A stretch of 64,000 nt of DNA, taken from the NCBI GenBank assembly GCA_015232455.1, contig JADFZQ010000018.1, positions 318 through 64,317 on the forward strand, given 5' to 3'. The position numbers and the translations under genes are program-made. A model generated the notes under the pieces. It was not told the DNA's origin. It made no database searches and saw only the letters and a program-made list of their open reading frames with translations. This document shows positions 6,447-35,291 of this stretch, in pieces. Numbering within the stretch: the first letter of the stretch is position 1; every line of letters begins with the position of its first letter. This DNA comes from Desulfamplus sp. (GTDB lineage: Bacteria; Desulfobacterota; Desulfobacteria; Desulfobacterales; Desulfobacteraceae).

Positions 6447-7898
6447 ATGGCTAACCTACTTGATTTTTTAAGCTCTCTAAGATGGCAGGATTTGGTTGAT
6501 ATTTTGATAAACAGCTACATTCTCTTCAGACTCTATGTTCTTTTCAGAGGTTCAAGACTTATACGTATTGTTCCTGTTGTATCACTTCTATGGGTACTTA
6601 ATATAATGGCACTATATATGGGACTTGTTGTTACAACATGGGCGATTCAAGGAATTATAACTGCTGCCGCCATTATTTTGATTATTGTTTTTAGAGATGA
6701 GATAGCTTCTGTTTTTCAGACCAAAAACTTGACATCGTTTGTCTGGGGGTTTCCAAACACAAAAATTTCAACACCCATTGAGATAATTATATTAAGTGCC
6801 TTTGAACTTGGCAAAAGAAAAGTGGGTGCTCTCCTTGTTATTCCGGGAAAACAGAGCATTGATGAGATTGTTCAGGGTGGTATTCCTTGGGACGGAGTTA
6901 TCTCAGAACAGATGATCTTTTCTATATTTTGGGACAAGAATCCTGTCCATGATGGTGCTGCTTTAATCTATGGAGATCGTATTACTGATGTCTCTGTACT
7001 TTTGCCTTTGTCAAAACGAACGGACCTTCCATCTCGGTATGGGACACGTCATAGGGCTGCTATTGGTCTTTGTGAATCATGCGATTCACTTGTTATTGTT
7101 ATATCAGAAGAGAGAGGTCACGTTACTGCTGTAAAAGGTTCAGAAATAAGGCATGTAAAAAAAGCTGAAGAGCTTCAAGAAATTTTGATAAGACATACGG
7201 GACAGACAAAAAAAGATAAAGGGATACCAAAATGGAGAGAGGTCTCTGAATTCGCGGTTGCAGCATTTGCATGTTTCATACTTATTACAGGTTTATGGTT
7301 TGGGCTTTCTCGTGGAAAAGAGACATTAAAGACAATAAATGTACCAGTAGAATATACAGATATTAAACCGGGTTTTGATATTATTGAAGCATCAACAAAT
7401 ACTGTTGACTTGCATTTAAGCGGTTCAATGCCTTTATTAAAATCACTAAAACCTGAGAATGTGAAAGTTTTATTAAAACTTGGAAGTGCTTATGCTGGAC
7501 ATAACTCTGTTAATATATCTCTTGATAACATAATTCTTCCTCCCGGGGTTAATTTAAAAAAGGTTGAGCCAAAAACAGTAGAGATTGTCATGGCAGGTAA
7601 AATTGAACGCAATATACCAATTCAAGTTGATTGGTCAGGCAAACTTGCAGATAACCTGATTCTTGAATCTGTAAACATTACGCCTGCAACTATAACAGTA
7701 ACTGGAGTAAGCCCAGGTATTGAAACTGTTGCAACAATTTACACTGAAAAAGTATCTCTTGATAATATAAAAGCTGATGGCACGACTCAGGCTGGGATTG
7801 TTCTTTTTCCATCATCTCTTAAAACAGATGGAACTGTTAAGAGTGTATCTATAGCTTATAGGGTTAGGGAGAGAAAGATCGGAGATATATTTGAATAG
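6447..7898 (+). CDS. cdaA: Diadenylate cyclase CdaA/DacA fused to YbbR (CdaR-like) domains
   Basis: N-terminal TM helices, DAC catalytic motifs HDGA and TRHRAA, an extra TM (AAFACFILITGLWFGLS), then YbbR-like beta-rich repeats. Confidence 0.88.
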   Translation: MANLLDFLSSLRWQDLVDILINSYILFRLYVLFRGSRLIRIVPVVSLLWVLNIMALYMGLVVTTWAIQGIITAAAIILIIVFRDEIASVFQTKNLTSFVWGFPNTKISTPIEIIILSAFELGKRKVGALLVIPGKQSIDEIVQGGIPWDGVISEQMIFSIFWDKNPVHDGAALIYGDRITDVSVLLPLSKRTDLPSRYGTRHRAAIGLCESCDSLVIVISEERGHVTAVKGSEIRHVKKAEELQEILIRHTGQTKKDKGIPKWREVSEFAVAAFACFILITGLWFGLSRGKETLKTINVPVEYTDIKPGFDIIEASTNTVDLHLSGSMPLLKSLKPENVKVLLKLGSAYAGHNSVNISLDNIILPPGVNLKKVEPKTVEIVMAGKIERNIPIQVDWSGKLADNLILESVNITPATITVTGVSPGIETVATIYTEKVSLDNIKADGTTQAGIVLFPSSLKTDGTVKSVSIAYRVRERKIGDIFE

Positions 7899-7906
7899 TT
7901 CATAGT

Positions 7907-7954
7907 AGTTCAAAAATTTGAACTGGTTAATGCGATAGTTCAAATTTTTGAACT
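7907..7954. repeat. Pair of 18-bp near-palindromes AGTTCAAA-N2-TTTGAACT in inverted orientation
   Basis: AGTTCAAAAATTTGAACT (7907-7924) and AGTTCAAATTTTTGAACT (7937-7954). A third degenerate copy lies at 8049-8065. Confidence 0.75.
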
Positions 7955-8277
7955 ATGAATATTCTGGATAACAAAATAAAAAAAACAATATATTCTAATA
8001 GTTAGAACACAATGATTGCATAGCATGACTTATCATAGATTTAATTGCGTTCAAATTTTTGAATTTTAACAGCTTTGAACATCAAATATGATGATAGTAA
8101 TTTGACATAACCGCCATCAATCCAACGAAATTGCTGATAGTTGGCATAATAGTTTTTTTATTTAATATAGATAATTGGCGTAATAAGTAGGGTAATGAAT
8201 TGAAATATTTGAATATTCAGACATAATCAAAATAAGTTTGAATATTTTTTAAAATTAATTAATAAATATAAATAGGT

Positions 8278-8294
8278 TTGGCAAACTATTTGCA
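8278..8294 (+). promoter_or_regulatory. Candidate sigma-54 (-24/-12) promoter
   Basis: TTGGCAAACTATTTGCA with exact GG-N10-GC spacing (GG 8280-8281, GC 8292-8293). Confidence 0.6.
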
Positions 8295-8304
8295 TTAATA
8301 AAAA

Positions 8305-8396
8305 TCAAACACAAACAATGACATTCAGTTAATTTTCATCTTTTTCCTCCTTTTAAAAAAGCCTACATCAGAAATTGTTCTGATGCGGGCTTTTTT
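8305..8396 (+). ncRNA. Candidate sigma-54-dependent small RNA
   Basis: About 90 nt between a -24/-12 promoter and an intrinsic terminator, within a 640-bp gap between convergent genes. No + strand ORF. Confidence 0.45.
8355..8396. terminator. Rho-independent terminator (bidirectional geometry)
   Basis: A6-GCCTACATCAGAA...TTCTGATGCGGGC-T6. Confidence 0.8.
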
Positions 8397-8470
8397 AAAT
8401 TTTACCGCCGCAAATCGCTTCACTATCTTTTAAAAAAATCATGGAATCAATTGAAGTTTTACAAATGGCA

Positions 8471-8535
8471 TCCCGTAAAACCCATTTCCTATTCAGTAAA
8501 TTAAAGATGGCAATTTAAGTTTTGCAGGAAATCTA
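8471..8535. repeat. About 62-65 bp dispersed repeat with terminal inverted repeat TCCTGCAAA, copy 1
   Basis: Shares AAACCCATTTYCTATYCAGTAAA and TTTGCAGGAAATCTA with 35450-35511. Confidence 0.7.
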
Positions 8536-8542
8536 AAGAACT

Positions 8543-9226
8543 TTAATTTCTTGCTACAATATCATCTACCAGAACCTTATACATAGAATTTTCATACCCA
8601 GAAGAGAACTTCTTAAGAAAATCAAGACCTTTCTTGTTATCTCCATTTGTAATTGCACCTATACCAAGATTAAACAATGCGTCATCTTTCATTAAACTAT
8701 TATTGCCATCAACTATAGTTTTAAAGTGTTTCTCAGCTTCATCGTATTTCTTTAATGCCTGACATGTGTGTGCTAATGAGGCTAAAATAATATTTTGCAT
8801 TACAGAGTCGCTTTTAAAATCATCTAACGCAGATGTATAAAGTTTATATGCCATATCATATTGACCAGCAGAGTAACATATTTCAGCAAATCTTAAGTTG
8901 CCAATTCTTCCAGATGATGTATTTGGATATTCATTAAGAAGCGTCTCAAATTGCCCTTTAACAGCAGAATATCCCTCTATTGGCTCTTTATTGTTACTAT
9001 AGTTTTTAAGTGCCTCGGTAAGCATTATAGATGCCTTACTCTCCGCAGAGTTTATTGTATAAATGGTTATTGAGATAATGCAAATAATAGAGAGTATTAT
9101 TATTCCCCCTATGAAAAGCTGTTTTTTAATTTTTTTTGCGGTATCTAAAGTTTTATACATTGACTCAAGAAATGGGTCTGGTTGCTCTAACTCCTTTTTG
9201 CGTGCATTTGATATTCTATCTGCCAT
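8543..9226 (-). CDS. Membrane-anchored TPR protein (YfgM/TPR_21-like)
   Basis: One N-terminal TM followed by helical TPR-like repeats. Confidence 0.75.
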   Translation of the reverse strand: MADRISNARKKELEQPDPFLESMYKTLDTAKKIKKQLFIGGIIILSIICIISITIYTINSAESKASIMLTEALKNYSNNKEPIEGYSAVKGQFETLLNEYPNTSSGRIGNLRFAEICYSAGQYDMAYKLYTSALDDFKSDSVMQNIILASLAHTCQALKKYDEAEKHFKTIVDGNNSLMKDDALFNLGIGAITNGDNKKGLDFLKKFSSGYENSMYKVLVDDIVARN

Positions 9227-9301
9227 AATCTCCTCTTAATAGTTCAGTATTGTTCTCTTATAATCTTATTGATATTTTTAGACTCAAACATAAAGTTATA
9301 A

Positions 9302-9802
9302 TCACCACAGTAGAGACTTAAAAATCCATCCTGTTTCTCCGTCTGCATGTTGAACTTTAACCCATTCCCCTTTGTTTTCAAGTACCTTAAATGGAACTCC
9401 ACGCTCTACAGTAAATGCAAGAGGCTGATCTTGACCAGGTCCTTTTCTGACGTTGCATTTATCCTTTAAAGTTATGACTGATGGGGTCTTATCGACAAGT
9501 GTACCGAGTATCCAGCCAGTGTCATTTTCAAAATCTTTAAACTTGATCCAACCATCTTTTTTCTCCAATACAATAATAGGATAATACATTTCCGTTTTCC
9601 ACAAAACTTCGCCATCAATCTTTGGAGATGAACGCACATTTGCAAGTTTTGCCTTTACAGATAATCTCTCTTCACAAAGAGCCATATCTGGGGAAATTGT
9701 TATAAAAATAAATGAAAGCAGAATCATCTGCATAATAAGCAACCTATATTTTATAGCAAATCTATAAGTTAGCTTTAACCTCTTTACATTTACACACAAC
9801 AT
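9302..9802 (-). CDS. Secreted tandem bacterial SH3-domain protein
   Basis: Two repeats of NVRxxP...GWxKV...GWI and a signal peptide. Start codon uncertain. Confidence 0.85.
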   Translation of the reverse strand: MLCVNVKRLKLTYRFAIKYRLLIMQMILLSFIFITISPDMALCEERLSVKAKLANVRSSPKIDGEVLWKTEMYYPIIVLEKKDGWIKFKDFENDTGWILGTLVDKTPSVITLKDKCNVRKGPGQDQPLAFTVERGVPFKVLENKGEWVKVQHADGETGWIFKSLLW

Positions 9803-18864: not shown

Positions 18865-20990
18865 TACGCTACTATCAACAACTATCTTTAAAAAATCAGA
18901 TTTACGTTACTATTTTGGTTGCAATTCTTATAATCAGTGCCACAATTGCACTTCTTGCCCGCTGGATTCTTATATCTGGATTAACCAAAGAGCTTGAGCT
19001 TCGAGGTATTGCAGTTGCCCACTCAATTGCCGAACGTGGGGCTGGCTTTGTGCTTGAAAAGAACTCACCAGAGCTTCTTAGCCTTATTTTTGATGAGGCA
19101 CGGCTAAGAGAGCGGCAGCACATGATAAATTATATCTACGTTTTAGATAGAGGCGGACAGGTTATCTCCCACACATTCACCTTCCCATTTCCGTTACAGT
19201 TTAGCAAAGCAAACCCAATGCCAGAAAATGCACTTCACAGTGTAAGACTTATTGAGCATGGAGCAAATACATCTTACGATATTGCAGTTCCAATGAGTGA
19301 GGGTTTATATAGAATTGGAACGGTTCATGTTGGTTTAAGCAAAGAGCATATTGATAATTTGGTCTCAAGATTGCGATTCATGTTTTTGGGTTTTATCTCT
19401 GCTGTAATAATACTTATCTTTTACGTAAGCCATCTTATTTCACGTCATATTACAATGCCCATAACCCGTCTGACCAGAATTTCAGATGAGTTGAGCCGCG
19501 GCAATTTTGATTTTAATTTAGATATGGACGATAATGGAGTTGATCCAGATGGAAACATAGGCTGGGGTATGAACAACTGTCCAGCTTATAAAGATACAAA
19601 CATGCCTTGCTGGCATTTTGATGAGCAAAGCCGCCGTTTTAGAAATATTGATAGTAAAAGCGAGCAGTTGTGCAGAACTTGTGTCTTTTATCGTAAAAGT
19701 CATGGACGCGATGAAGTTACTCAATTGGCTGATTCATTTCTTAATATGGTCTGGTCAATCCGGCTTTATCGTAAAAGGCTTCAAGAATCTGAGTTAAAAT
19801 ACCGCTCTCTTTTTGATTCAGCTCCAAACCCTATTTTTGTTGTTGAGTGTAATAACGAGATCATTTTAGATGCAAACCCTCGGGCTGCTGAACTTTATGG
19901 TTATCCACTTGAAAAGCTTTTTGGAATGCCTTTTGAGAAACTTGGACAAGATCACATTAAAGAGTGTCTTATCTCGATTGATAGCTTAGAGAATGAACTA
20001 AATAATCGTGATGGCTCAGAAAATACACTAAATAATAGCCAAGATAGGGGAGAGAATAGCAAATTAAATAAAGAGTTTAATAACAACGATACTCATAGAC
20101 CAACATATTTACGTGCCAGCGATTACGTCTATTATCCCAAGATTCTGCATCTTAAAAACGGTGGACATCCTTTTTATGTTAATATGCACGCCTGTCCAAT
20201 AAGCTATGGTGGAACTCAGGCAATTGTTGTTGCTGTAACTGATATTACAGAGATGATGGAAAAAGATGCTCAATTGGTTCAAGCAGCAAAAATGAAGACC
20301 CTTGGCGAAATGAGTGCTGGTATTGCACATGAGATAAATCAACCGCTCAATACCATTAAAATGGGCAGCGAGTACCTTAATCTGCTTTTAGACCAAAAAA
20401 GAGCAATAACTGAAGCCCAAATAAGAGATATGGCAACGGAGATAAGTGAGCAGGTTGACAGAGCTACTGAGATCATAAATAATCTTAGGGCTTTTGGTAG
20501 GAAATCAGGTTTGACTATGGAGAAGGTAAGTTTAACAGAGCCGATTCAGGGGGTTTTGTCAATTATTGGCCGTCAATTTTCCATTCAGAGAATTGCAATT
20601 CGTCTTGATCTTGCAGATAATCTACCGTTAGTAAAAGGGCACAATAACAGATTGCAGCAGGTTTTTTTTAATCTGCTAAATAATGCAAGAGATGCGATTC
20701 AAGAGAAGATGGATATTGAGCCTGAACTTTATGGCGATATACTTGTCCGTACATACGCTGAAAATGGCAAGGTTGTAGTTCTATTTAAAGATAATGGAGT
20801 TGGTATTCCAGACGAAGTTCGTAATAAAATTTTTGAGCCTTTTTTCACAACAAAACAGACAGGAAAAGGCATGGGTTTAGGTTTAGCAATTACTTATGGA
20901 ATTGTACGAGATTATGGCGGCACAATTACAATTGAGAGCAAACCAGGAGAGGGAACAACATTTGTTCTTACATTTTCAGCAGTGGACTGA
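18861..20990 (+). CDS. Sensor histidine kinase (TM-periplasmic-TM, HAMP with Cys4 insert, PAS, HisKA, HATPase)
   Basis: H-box [12 protein letters not shown]-box NLLNNARDA, and G-boxes DNGVG and GMGLGL. Confidence 0.93.
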
Positions 20991-32081: not shown

Positions 32082-33422
32082 TCAAAAAGTTTTTGATATT
32101 CCAGCCCTTTTCATCTTATAACGCAACACTCTCTCACTTATTCCTAAAACTTGAGCCGCCTTTGTCTGAATCCAATCAGTTTTCTCAAGAGCAGATTTTA
32201 TCATTTGGCTCTCAATCGCCATCAATCTATGTTCAAGTGAGCCATCTTGATCAGAACCAACTGTTTCGTAGTTACGTATCTCATCAGGAAGATCAGAAGG
32301 ATATATAACTGTTGTTCGTGTAAAGGTAACTGTTCGCTGCACAATATGTTCAAGTTCTCTTACATTTCCGGGAAAAGGGTATTTTATAAGTGTGTTGATT
32401 GCATCAGAAGAGAATGAAAGCCTATTTTTGCTGTATTTTTCTAAAAAGTAGTTAAGAAGTATGGGAATATCAATCTTTCTATGTCTTAAAGGAGGAATAG
32501 TTATCTCAAGAACCTTAATTCTGTAGTATAAATCTTCTCTAAACTCTCCTTGTTCAACCATAAGTTTTAAATCTCTGTTTGTAGCTGAAATGAGCCTCAC
32601 ATCAACCTTAAAGTCAGTTTCTCCTCCCACTTTTCTGATTTTTTGCTCTTGTATAGCCCTTAAAAGTTTTGGTTGAAGAGTAATTGGCATCTCACCAATT
32701 TCGTCCATAAATAGAGTCCCTTTATTTGCCATCTCAAACGCTCCTTTACGGTTATTTATAGCACCCGTAAAAGAGCCTTTTACATGACCAAAAAGTTCGC
32801 TTTCAAAGAGATTTTCAGGAATAGCAGCACAGTTAATATCAACAAACGGTTCGTTGTCTCTTATGCTTGTAAGGTGAATGAGCTTTGAGATTAACTCTTT
32901 TCCTGTTCCAGTCTCTCCAGATACCAAAACAGGAAAAGAGCTTTGTGAAACTCTTGAGACTAGTGACAATACCTCTTTCATGGCATCGCTTTGTGCAACT
33001 ATCTTTAATGGAAGTTTTCTCTCAGCCACGCTATTTTGAATATCACAAACATCTTGATCGCGGCATGTTTTAAGTTCAATCTCCTGAATTTTTGTAAGTA
33101 GGATCGATAGATCAACAGGTTTTTCGAGAAACTCAACAGCTCCAAGTTTCATAGTTTTAATAACAGTTGAGAGATCACCGTAAGCTGTAATCATAATCAC
33201 ATTAACTAATGGATTAAGTTGTTTCATCTTTTCAAGAAGCTCATCACCACTCATACCGGGCATTCGGTTATCAAGAAGGGCAAGTTGTATTGGCTCACGT
33301 TGAAAAATTTTCAAAGCATCTTGACCATTCGCAGCTATAAAAGCCGTATATCCTTGATTTTCAAGAAAACCTTGAAGCATCTCTCTCTGAGTTTGGTCAT
33401 CATCAACAATCAGAATTAACAT
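32082..33422 (-). CDS. Sigma-54-dependent response regulator (NtrC family; REC-AAA+-HTH)
   Basis: LIVDDD, GETGTGKE, ELFGHVKGSFTGA, LFMDEIGE, FREDLYYR, FPGNVREL and a C-terminal HTH. ATG 33422 follows GGAG; the track start at 33512 looks over-extended. Confidence 0.95.
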   Translation of the reverse strand: MLILIVDDDQTQREMLQGFLENQGYTAFIAANGQDALKIFQREPIQLALLDNRMPGMSGDELLEKMKQLNPLVNVIMITAYGDLSTVIKTMKLGAVEFLEKPVDLSILLTKIQEIELKTCRDQDVCDIQNSVAERKLPLKIVAQSDAMKEVLSLVSRVSQSSFPVLVSGETGTGKELISKLIHLTSIRDNEPFVDINCAAIPENLFESELFGHVKGSFTGAINNRKGAFEMANKGTLFMDEIGEMPITLQPKLLRAIQEQKIRKVGGETDFKVDVRLISATNRDLKLMVEQGEFREDLYYRIKVLEITIPPLRHRKIDIPILLNYFLEKYSKNRLSFSSDAINTLIKYPFPGNVRELEHIVQRTVTFTRTTVIYPSDLPDEIRNYETVGSDQDGSLEHRLMAIESQMIKSALEKTDWIQTKAAQVLGISERVLRYKMKRAGISKTF

Positions 33423-33505: not shown

Positions 33506-33522
33506 TTGGCAATCAGCTTGCT
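33506..33522 (+). promoter_or_regulatory. Candidate sigma-54 promoter motif, divergent from the activator gene
   Basis: TTGGCAATCAGCTTGCT with GG-N10-GC spacing. Confidence 0.4.
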
Positions 33523-34825: not shown

Positions 34826-35137
34826 TTACTCAATAGTTTGGACACTTGTTGCATCAATAGTTTGGACATCACCCTCTTCAGTAACCATACCAATTACATT
34901 AACCATCTTATCGTCAAAGCCCTGAACCTGATCACATGGAATTATGTATATATTCTCTTTTGCAATAATACCACATACATCTTCAGCTTTAACTACAGTC
35001 CCCTTAACTATAATCTCTTGAATTTGATTATCTCTATTTACAACTTTATCAGCCTCAACTATTGGTTTGAACGAAAGCATCATAGTTAGAGCAGCAAGAG
35101 TTAAACCAACTGTTTTTGTAATCTTGGTTATTTTCAT
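34826..35137 (-). CDS. Small secreted hypothetical protein (OB-fold-like)
   Basis: GGGAG RBS, signal peptide ending VEA, and a short beta-rich mature part with two Cys. Confidence 0.7.
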   Translation of the reverse strand: MKITKITKTVGLTLAALTMMLSFKPIVEADKVVNRDNQIQEIIVKGTVVKAEDVCGIIAKENIYIIPCDQVQGFDDKMVNVIGMVTEEGDVQTIDATSVQTIE

Positions 35138-35274: not shown

Positions 35275-35291
35275 AGCAATAGATATGCCAA
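35275..35291 (-). promoter_or_regulatory. Candidate sigma-54 promoter for the 103-aa secreted protein
   Basis: Minus strand TTGGCATATCTATTGCT, GG-N10-GC, about 130 nt upstream of the ATG. Confidence 0.6.

Follow-up and report, generated by a model that had tools for sequence, protein, structure and literature searches.

A conserved candidate sigma-54-driven small RNA gene with an anti-Shine-Dalgarno seed and a predicted porin target in the Desulfobacteraceae

The window, i.e. the whole stretch of 64,000 nucleotides analysed here, originates from a Desulfamplus genome, called the source genome in the following. It contains a cdaA-ybbR fusion gene (6447-7898, + strand) and a convergent TPR gene (8543-9226, - strand), separated by a gap of 644 bp. 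The 483-aa product of the fusion gene combines CdaA, a c-di-AMP synthase with DAC domain, with a YbbR/CdaR-like domain. Predicted activator sites, a putative sigma-54 promoter, an invariant stretch which would block ribosome-binding sites and a terminator are the proposed parts of one module within this gap (Table 1). The order cdaA, small RNA (sRNA), TPR, SH3 was kept at 20 of 30 loci from many genera. In most relatives the TPR stop codon lies 7-28 nt from the terminator, which there also ends the TPR gene. The distance between sRNA and TPR gene amounts to 145 nt in the source genome, which is explained by a repeat of about 72 nt. This dispersed repeat (8463-8536, between terminator and TPR stop) is present in 36 copies in the source genome. 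Its consensus is roughly TTGACCT-CCTGCAAAAC...GTTTTGCAGG-AACTCTA, an internal hairpin is formed, and the element resembles a REP- or MITE-like insertion. In four species of the source genus the complete unit is surrounded by other genes and is therefore independent of cdaA or TPR. Paralogous sRNA copies were not found in the source genome; short blast matches were ordinary gene starts.

Table 1 Predicted features of the candidate sRNA module (positions in the window)
Feature	Position	Strand	Remarks
Activator site 1, palindrome GTTCAAAAATTTGAAC	7908-7923		18-bp form AGTTCAAAAATTTGAACT at 7907-7924
Activator site 2, GTTCAAATTTTTGAAC	7938-7953		30 bp from site 1
Activator site 3, GTTCAAATTTTTGAAT	8049-8064		one arm mismatch; 111 bp from site 2
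Putative sigma-54 promoter TGGCAAACTATTTGCA (TGGCA AACTAT TTGCA)	8279-8294	+	GG at -24, GC at -12
Predicted sRNA, about 92 nt	8305-8396	+	start from promoter geometry (+/- 2 nt); 3' end in T-run
5' hairpin	8319-8331	+	weak in source genome: UGAC/GUUA, 4 bp
Single-stranded seed UUUUCAUCUUUUUCCUCCUUUU (DNA TTTTCATCTTTTTCCTCCTTTT), 22 nt	8333-8354	+	between hairpin and terminator
Bidirectional intrinsic terminator	8355-8396		A-run, stem GCCUACAUCAGAA/UUCUGAUGCGGGC, U-run; scan calls both strands

The original prediction, which was made from the sequence of this stretch, had claimed a -24/-12 motif in the gap between cdaA and TPR. This motif was confirmed at 8278-8294 (TTGGCAAACTATTTGCA). With GG-N10-GC and 12 nt from GG to GC it has the canonical -24/-12 geometry. 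The strict form TGGCA-N6-TTGCW occurs four times in the window, compared to 0.43 expected occurrences. The three further exact matches are located at 19208-19223 (-), 33507-33522 (+) and 35275-35290 (-), the last one upstream of a gene for a 103-aa exported protein starting at 35137 (-). A gene for an enhancer-binding protein (EBP) is found in the window at about 32337-33002 (-). Upstream of homologues identified with a covariance model, from which the promoter was excluded, TGGCA-N6-TTGC was detected in 61 of 62 cases and in 1.3% of random windows of the same loci, when up to one mismatch outside GG and GC was tolerated. In the homologues with motif, its GC sits 30-42 nt upstream of the seed. 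Among the 61 homologues passing the motif filter T-G-G-C and T-G-C are invariant and the spacer is variable; the consensus TGGCA-N-(G/A)-N-N-A-(T/A)-TTGC(A/T)TT corresponds to the canonical sigma-54 motif. A weak sigma-70-like match (TTGGCA, 16 nt, AAAAAT) overlaps it, but the bases conserved across genera are those of the sigma-54 motif. The source genome encodes one rpoN gene, recognised by its Sigma54_DBD domain (C7:55167-55643), and 27 EBPs (Sigma54_activat genes). From the motif and its conservation we infer a sigma-54-dependent transcription.

For the 92-nt RNA a fold with -22.3 kcal/mol (z = -5.3) was predicted, in which 8332-8354 is unpaired. The original prediction had described single-stranded-looking sequence followed by a strong terminator. 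Seed and terminator were found accordingly, but the RNA additionally contains a small conserved hairpin at its 5' side. Moreover, the terminator is bidirectional, and most relatives share it with the TPR gene. The 5' hairpin consists of 6 bp (ACUAAC/GUUAGU) in most relatives, with compensatory changes in six of six pairs among 55 distinct sequences. Such changes were also detected in 18 of the 20 pairs of the terminator stem. Hence, covariation was observed for both helices, with double changes in 24 of 26 pairs, and 96.7% of the cells are paired over 58 full-length matches. The covariation score was 0.395, compared to 0.123 for shuffled alignments (none of 500 reached the score) and at most 0.084 for slid partners; the alignment was fitted to the model, and the slid-partner control and an independent MAFFT/RNAalifold result agree. 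Conservation is strongest in the seed, whereas the terminator sequence covaries freely. No conserved open reading frame was found on either strand of the unit.

The complement of a start region, claimed for the sequence just before the terminator, is present there. The seed is the exact complement of AAAAGGAGGAAAAAGAUGAAAA, comprising Shine-Dalgarno (SD) sequence, spacer, AUG and AAA; GUUAAUUUUCAUCUUUUUCCUCC is located at 8328-8350. Genera are numbered in the following (g1, g2 etc.). The seed is identical in g1, g11, g31 and g34. In g10, g12, g29 and g5 the variant UUUCAUCUUUUUU(U)CCUUUUCUU was found, with the form UUUCAUCUUUUUU(U)CCUUUUCUUAA in g10.

An Rfam scan and a search of related genomes had been named as checks together with the original prediction. 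In a DNA search of relatives the region was present in 11 of 13 genomes of the source genus. The alignments start at query base 79, corresponding to position 8278 of the window, the first T of TTGGCA. An alignment of ten loci of this genus showed identity from TTGGCA to the terminator and unrelated flanks; TTGGCA and TTGCA do not vary, in contrast to the five bases between them, and the seed is invariant. Thus, promoter, anti-SD sequence and terminator are conserved in relatives, the helices with covariation. The covariance model R1 was built from the transcribed part alone, with the promoter deliberately excluded. It matched in full length in 129 of 151 Desulfobacteraceae genomes and in 16 of 19 genera, some of the genomes carrying two to three copies; since the genomes share ancestry, the independent events are fewer than these counts indicate. 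In other families of the order, three of about 118 genomes were identified, all with the -24/-12 motif. Elsewhere in the phylum none of 150 sampled genomes gave a match, and this sample doubles as specificity control. The three loci from other families (L153, L154, L155) are distant relatives with -24/-12 motif, hairpin, C/U-rich seed and terminator; one of them has two CCUCC-like boxes (UUUUCCUCCUUUUUCCUCUUU).

With cmscan against Rfam 15 (positions 7000-9500, E up to 10) no family reached the gathering threshold. The sub-threshold matches were driven by the terminator, among them Thr_leader with 27.4 bits against a gathering threshold of 55 bits. The sRNA family, its activator site and the link to a porin described below were not found in Rfam 15 or in the literature searched. 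No sRNA of the Desulfobacteraceae was encountered in these sources either. The putative sRNA genes form a real family with clear limits, which had not been described before, and the locus very probably encodes a sigma-54-driven sRNA.

The candidate activator sites share the palindrome GTTCA-N6-TGAAC with the best form AGTTCAAAnnTTTGAACT. In all 29 loci with enough flanking sequence for the count, one to three copies were found at most 450 bp upstream; downstream they were found in none of the 29. Site 3 lies about 240 bp upstream of the predicted sRNA start. Other genera also show about 30 bp between sites 1 and 2, and a third palindrome is conserved among genera 90-110 bp downstream of these two. 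Paralogous sRNA copies are likewise preceded by GTTCA-N6-TGAAC. In the source genome, perfect 18-mer palindromes are confined to the sRNA locus, which is also the sole cluster of three sites. Therefore, the activator seems to be dedicated to the sRNA gene, as LuxO is to the qrr genes. The palindrome matches at C11:404341 and C55:187378 were dismissed, as they are inside coding sequence.

A candidate for the activator was found in genus g9, where the second sRNA copy (L159, L160) is located 0.8 kb downstream of a gene for a 515-aa EBP. The N-terminal domain of this EBP is not recognised by Pfam. Its orthologue in the source genome (C7:9549-11360; L166:2550-4361) shows 63% identity including the N-terminal sensory part, and is followed by two PilZ-domain genes. 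Searches with the N- and C-terminal parts of the EBP detected neither in g11, g34 and G013, a genome of the source genus. All of these retain the sRNA and the palindromes, and the EBP at C7:9549-11360 is therefore only a weak lead to the possible activator. In genus g10 (L156, L157, L164, L165) the second sRNA copy is always located just downstream of putative metK and ahcY genes, named by their N-terminal sequences alone. This copy has its own putative sigma-54 promoter and two GTTCA-N6-TGAAC sites.

As one possible target within the window the 103-aa gene at 35137 had been put forward. This assignment did not hold, as the gene ranks only 863rd among 13,636 candidate start regions of the source genome in a duplex scan. 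A better candidate is a porin gene in another part of the genome: the mRNA of the major outer-membrane porin of the Porin_4 family is, from these comparisons, the most likely conserved target. The single homologue of the source genome (G000:C26:7655-8887) was 11th in the scan with -25.1 kcal/mol. Further top matches were a Bmp-type binding protein, an LPP20 lipoprotein, an ammonium transporter, an OmpA-like protein and SBP_bac_3. None of 60 shuffled seeds ranked the porin as high (median percentile of the porin 0.34). A second perfect complement of the 22-nt seed was not found in the source genome besides the sRNA gene itself.

The complement of the variant seed was sought in five g10 genomes. 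The exact matches checked, few in number, were the sRNA genes and starts of porin genes: G081 contributed two of these porins, G151 one and G116, for its 7-A form, another one. G152 contains a similar match outside the checked set. The respective porins have about 400 aa and are homologous to the porin of the source genome. A conserved hairpin TTATTGCA-TTTAAAAGGAG-TGCAATAA is found in the 5' UTR of the g10 porin genes about 40 nt upstream of the start (L097:1560-1615, L098:1020-1074 and other g10 porin loci). It presents an SD-like AAGGAG in its loop and possibly serves as a further regulatory element or as standby site.

Furthermore, the type of seed follows the ribosome-binding site of the porin, as compared for porin starts and sRNAs of 27-28 genomes from nine genera. 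Seeds with CCUCC are accompanied by GGAGG sites in g1, g11, g31 and g34, and seeds with UCC by AAGGA sites in g10, g12, g29 and g5. In G052 a UCUCC seed is opposite to a GGAGA site. Seed runs of six or seven U are mostly opposite to six or seven A of the porin. For g9 a match of 25 of 26 nt was found, including the lineage-specific extension CUUAA/UUAAG. This co-variation comprises only a few independent seed switches. In the source genus, g11 and g34 the predicted pairing with the porin is not continuous but consists of one block of about 18 nt and another of about 9 nt, separated by three to six unpaired target bases. For the source genus these are UUUUUUGUAGGAGGAAAA (one mismatch, one wobble) and AGAUGAAAA, with six unpaired target bases. 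Duplex energies of own and foreign pairs of sRNA and porin, tried as a test of co-evolution, barely differed, as A/U-rich runs make up both partners.

Members of the porin family were detected in only 31 of 112 genomes. In g2 and g35, both with sRNA, it was not found; thus, other targets must exist. The complement of the seed corresponds to a generic strong start region. In other genomes, near-perfect complements were seen for a second type of porin and for further secreted proteins, among them a probable TonB-dependent receptor, judged by its N-terminal sequence alone. For the second porin type, seen in G001, no homologue was found in the source genome. Signal peptides are present in 30% of the top targets and in 16% overall, which is not significant against the background of MK starts. 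Secondary targets may be found among other exported or envelope proteins.

Based on these observations, we propose 7908-8396 as a single regulatory module, the gene for a trans-acting sRNA, with a probability of about 0.62. An EBP would bind to the three GTTCA-N6-TGAAC palindromes 240-400 bp upstream and activate sigma-54 RNA polymerase at TGGCA-N6-TTGCA. Transcription from near 8305 to the terminator at 8396 would yield an RNA of about 92 nt. Between its hairpin and the terminator, this RNA would expose 22 nt antisense to a ribosome-binding site and start codon. The exposed seed is predicted to pair with translation-initiation regions of mRNAs and to block the 30S subunit. The porin mRNA (Porin_4) would be the best-supported conserved target, and synthesis of the porin would be shut off. 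No hfq gene was found in the source genome (98.5% complete), so the RNA may act without Hfq. The full mechanism including the repression of the porin is considered rather probable. The analysis shows the conservation of the unit, its promoter motif, the palindromes, the structure and the complementarity of seed and target; transcription, its dependence on sigma-54, repression and a triggering signal are what we infer. The claim of a free-standing sigma-54-type sRNA gene on the + strand with an anti-SD/anti-AUG seed gained comparative support by the conserved limits, the promoter, the palindromes, the invariant seed and the covariation of its flanking helices.

Two freshwater metatranscriptome runs contain the sRNA region, in unstranded contigs with a depth of 2-3. 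They cover 8323-8437 and 8342-8422, and one is joined to the 3' end of TPR. No metatranscriptome contig was found over 8232-8308 or cdaA. The contigs fit the sRNA and, equally, a minus-strand 3' UTR of TPR ending at the shared terminator. They are therefore also compatible with the explanation that no sRNA is present, with the hairpin serving as TPR terminator only and GGAGG-N6-ATG being a relic of a minus-strand gene or a mini-ORF. The bidirectional terminator would agree with this, as would the weak Thr_leader match and the minus strand itself, where GGAGGAAAAAGATG follows the terminator and a perfect SD with ATG gives MKIN-stop. However, the frame after this ATG has four codons in the source genome, six in g9 and about 24 in g11; as its length differs among genera, the ATG does not belong to a decayed gene, in accordance with the original prediction. 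The substitutions compensate each other in the stems and are not codon-like, a relic would hardly stay invariant across 16 genera, and neither the invariant GG-N10-GC nor the upstream palindromes would have a meaning on the minus strand. Since the module also occurs without any TPR gene, this explanation appears already contradicted by the comparative data and is extremely unlikely. An action in cis would likewise involve the TPR gene: sigma-54 transcription toward the convergent TPR-SH3 operon could cause interference or an RNA duplex at the 3' ends, with the seed being incidental. The kept arrangement with cdaA and SH3, the mostly short distance between TPR stop and shared terminator, about 40 complementary nt common to both transcripts and the RNA contigs connecting the TPR 3' end with the terminator point in this direction. 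On the other hand, the complete module is found at a distance from any TPR gene in the four species of the source genus mentioned above and for every second copy, e.g. after metK-ahcY or near an EBP gene, and the seed is conserved most strongly while the terminator sequence changes. We regard an action in cis as very unlikely.

If the sRNA acts in trans, its range of targets has to be discussed. The same sigma-54-driven RNA could be a broad anti-SD regulator, as CCUCCUUU copies the 3' tail of the 16S rRNA; it would dampen many mRNAs with strong SD sequences or a large envelope regulon, the porin being one of many or incidental. The 22-nt seed is invariant in at least five genera even where the pairing with the porin is interrupted, and g2 and g35, for which the porin family was not found, also possess the sRNA. 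In addition, many top-ranked starts belong to exported proteins (Bmp, LPP20, OmpA-like, SBP_bac_3), and the near-perfect complements in other genomes, with the second porin type, the probable TonB-dependent receptor and secreted proteins, suggest the same. A mimic of the 16S tail should not drift, but in g10 the anti-SD sequence turned from CCUCC to UCC along with a change of the porin site. The few exact g10 complements checked are porin starts, and the invariant CAU opposite to AUG together with the fixed spacing favours specific start regions. A broad regulator is considered unlikely. An extended version, in which an inducible, Hfq-free mimic of the 16S anti-SD tail under one sigma-54 activator throttles the strongest SD-AUG-AAA starts throughout the transcriptome, is to be considered improbable; it would provide a global control of envelope and secreted proteins with the porin as most sensitive client. 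Instead of blocking translation starts, the RNA might also bind a protein or another RNA as sponge or decoy. CrcZ and GlmY are sigma-54-dependent sRNAs acting by sequestration, no hfq gene was found, and long invariant U/C-rich stretches can serve as protein-binding sites. However, the invariant stretch is the exact antisense of SD-spacer-AUG-AAA in correct register, co-varies with a real start region and lacks repeats of a protein-binding motif like GGA, which makes a sponge or decoy a highly unlikely explanation. The repression of specific start regions in trans, with the porin as best-supported target, is the preferred reading.

The proposed circuit can be compared with known systems. The Qrr sRNAs of Vibrio, controlled by LuxO and sigma-54, are similar in several aspects: an sRNA gene of about 100 nt with sigma-54 promoter and upstream activator sites, which are recognisable essentially only at the sRNA genes, one to three paralogous copies per genome with invariant seed, and pairing at ribosome-binding sites, which is predicted here. 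In contrast to Qrr, the Desulfamplus sRNA gave no sequence or structure match in the Rfam scan, its activator site GTTCA-N6-TGAAC differs from the LuxO site, and its predicted target is a porin instead of a quorum-sensing regulator. Moreover, Qrr needs Hfq, whereas an hfq gene was not found in the source genome. The enterobacterial MicF, MicC, MicA and RybB and the Vibrio sRNA VrrA/MicV are likewise short sRNAs with terminator, and a single-stranded region pairs with the SD/AUG of the mRNA of an outer-membrane protein and blocks translation, as predicted here. These sRNAs are expressed from OmpR, sigma-E or sigma-70 promoters and employ Hfq. The Desulfamplus unit differs by its putative sigma-54 promoter with enhancer sites, the absence of a detected hfq gene and the missing Rfam match.

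GlmZ activates glmS, and GlmY serves as decoy. The input of this system resembles the locus described here, with three activator sites and a sigma-54 promoter upstream of the sRNA, and the weak overlapping sigma-70-like match of the Desulfamplus unit recalls the dual promoters of glmY. The palindrome of GlmY/GlmZ is a different one, and again no Rfam match was obtained for the Desulfamplus sRNA. For GlmY/GlmZ, controlled by GlrR and sigma-54, expression of the sRNA driven by three upstream activator sites and a sigma-54 promoter was described (PMC3045617). By analogy, the input side of the circuit would be similar to Qrr/LuxO or GlmY/GlrR and the output side to MicF, MicC or RybB.

In Desulfovibrio vulgaris sigma-54-dependent ncRNAs with their own EBP were predicted as targets of DVU0653, DVU0679, DVU1419 and DVU2359, some of them just downstream of the EBP gene (PMC3333781, PMC4641369). 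Thus, this kind of RNA is already known in the phylum. The second sRNA copy of g9 is also located downstream of an EBP gene, and both groups are sulfate reducers of the same phylum, but no homologue was found by model R1 in the 150 genomes across the phylum. The original prediction knew of no precedent in the lineage. This is correct for the family as such, which is undescribed, but not for sigma-54-dependent ncRNAs in view of D. vulgaris (PMC4641369, PMC3333781).

Desulfobacteraceae are major carbon and sulfur cyclers of marine sediments (PMC11887813). The locus provides a complete candidate circuit consisting of activator site (GTTCA-N6-TGAAC in two or three copies), sigma-54 promoter, RNA of about 90 nt and a predicted porin target with co-variation of seed and target. 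Most genomes of the family carry it, cultured strains such as Desulfocicer vacuolatum DSM 3385 (locus L066) among them, and the covariance model is directly usable for annotating the sRNA in metagenomes. The circuit suggests that in these bacteria the permeability of the outer membrane may be set post-transcriptionally by a dedicated sigma-54 signalling pathway.
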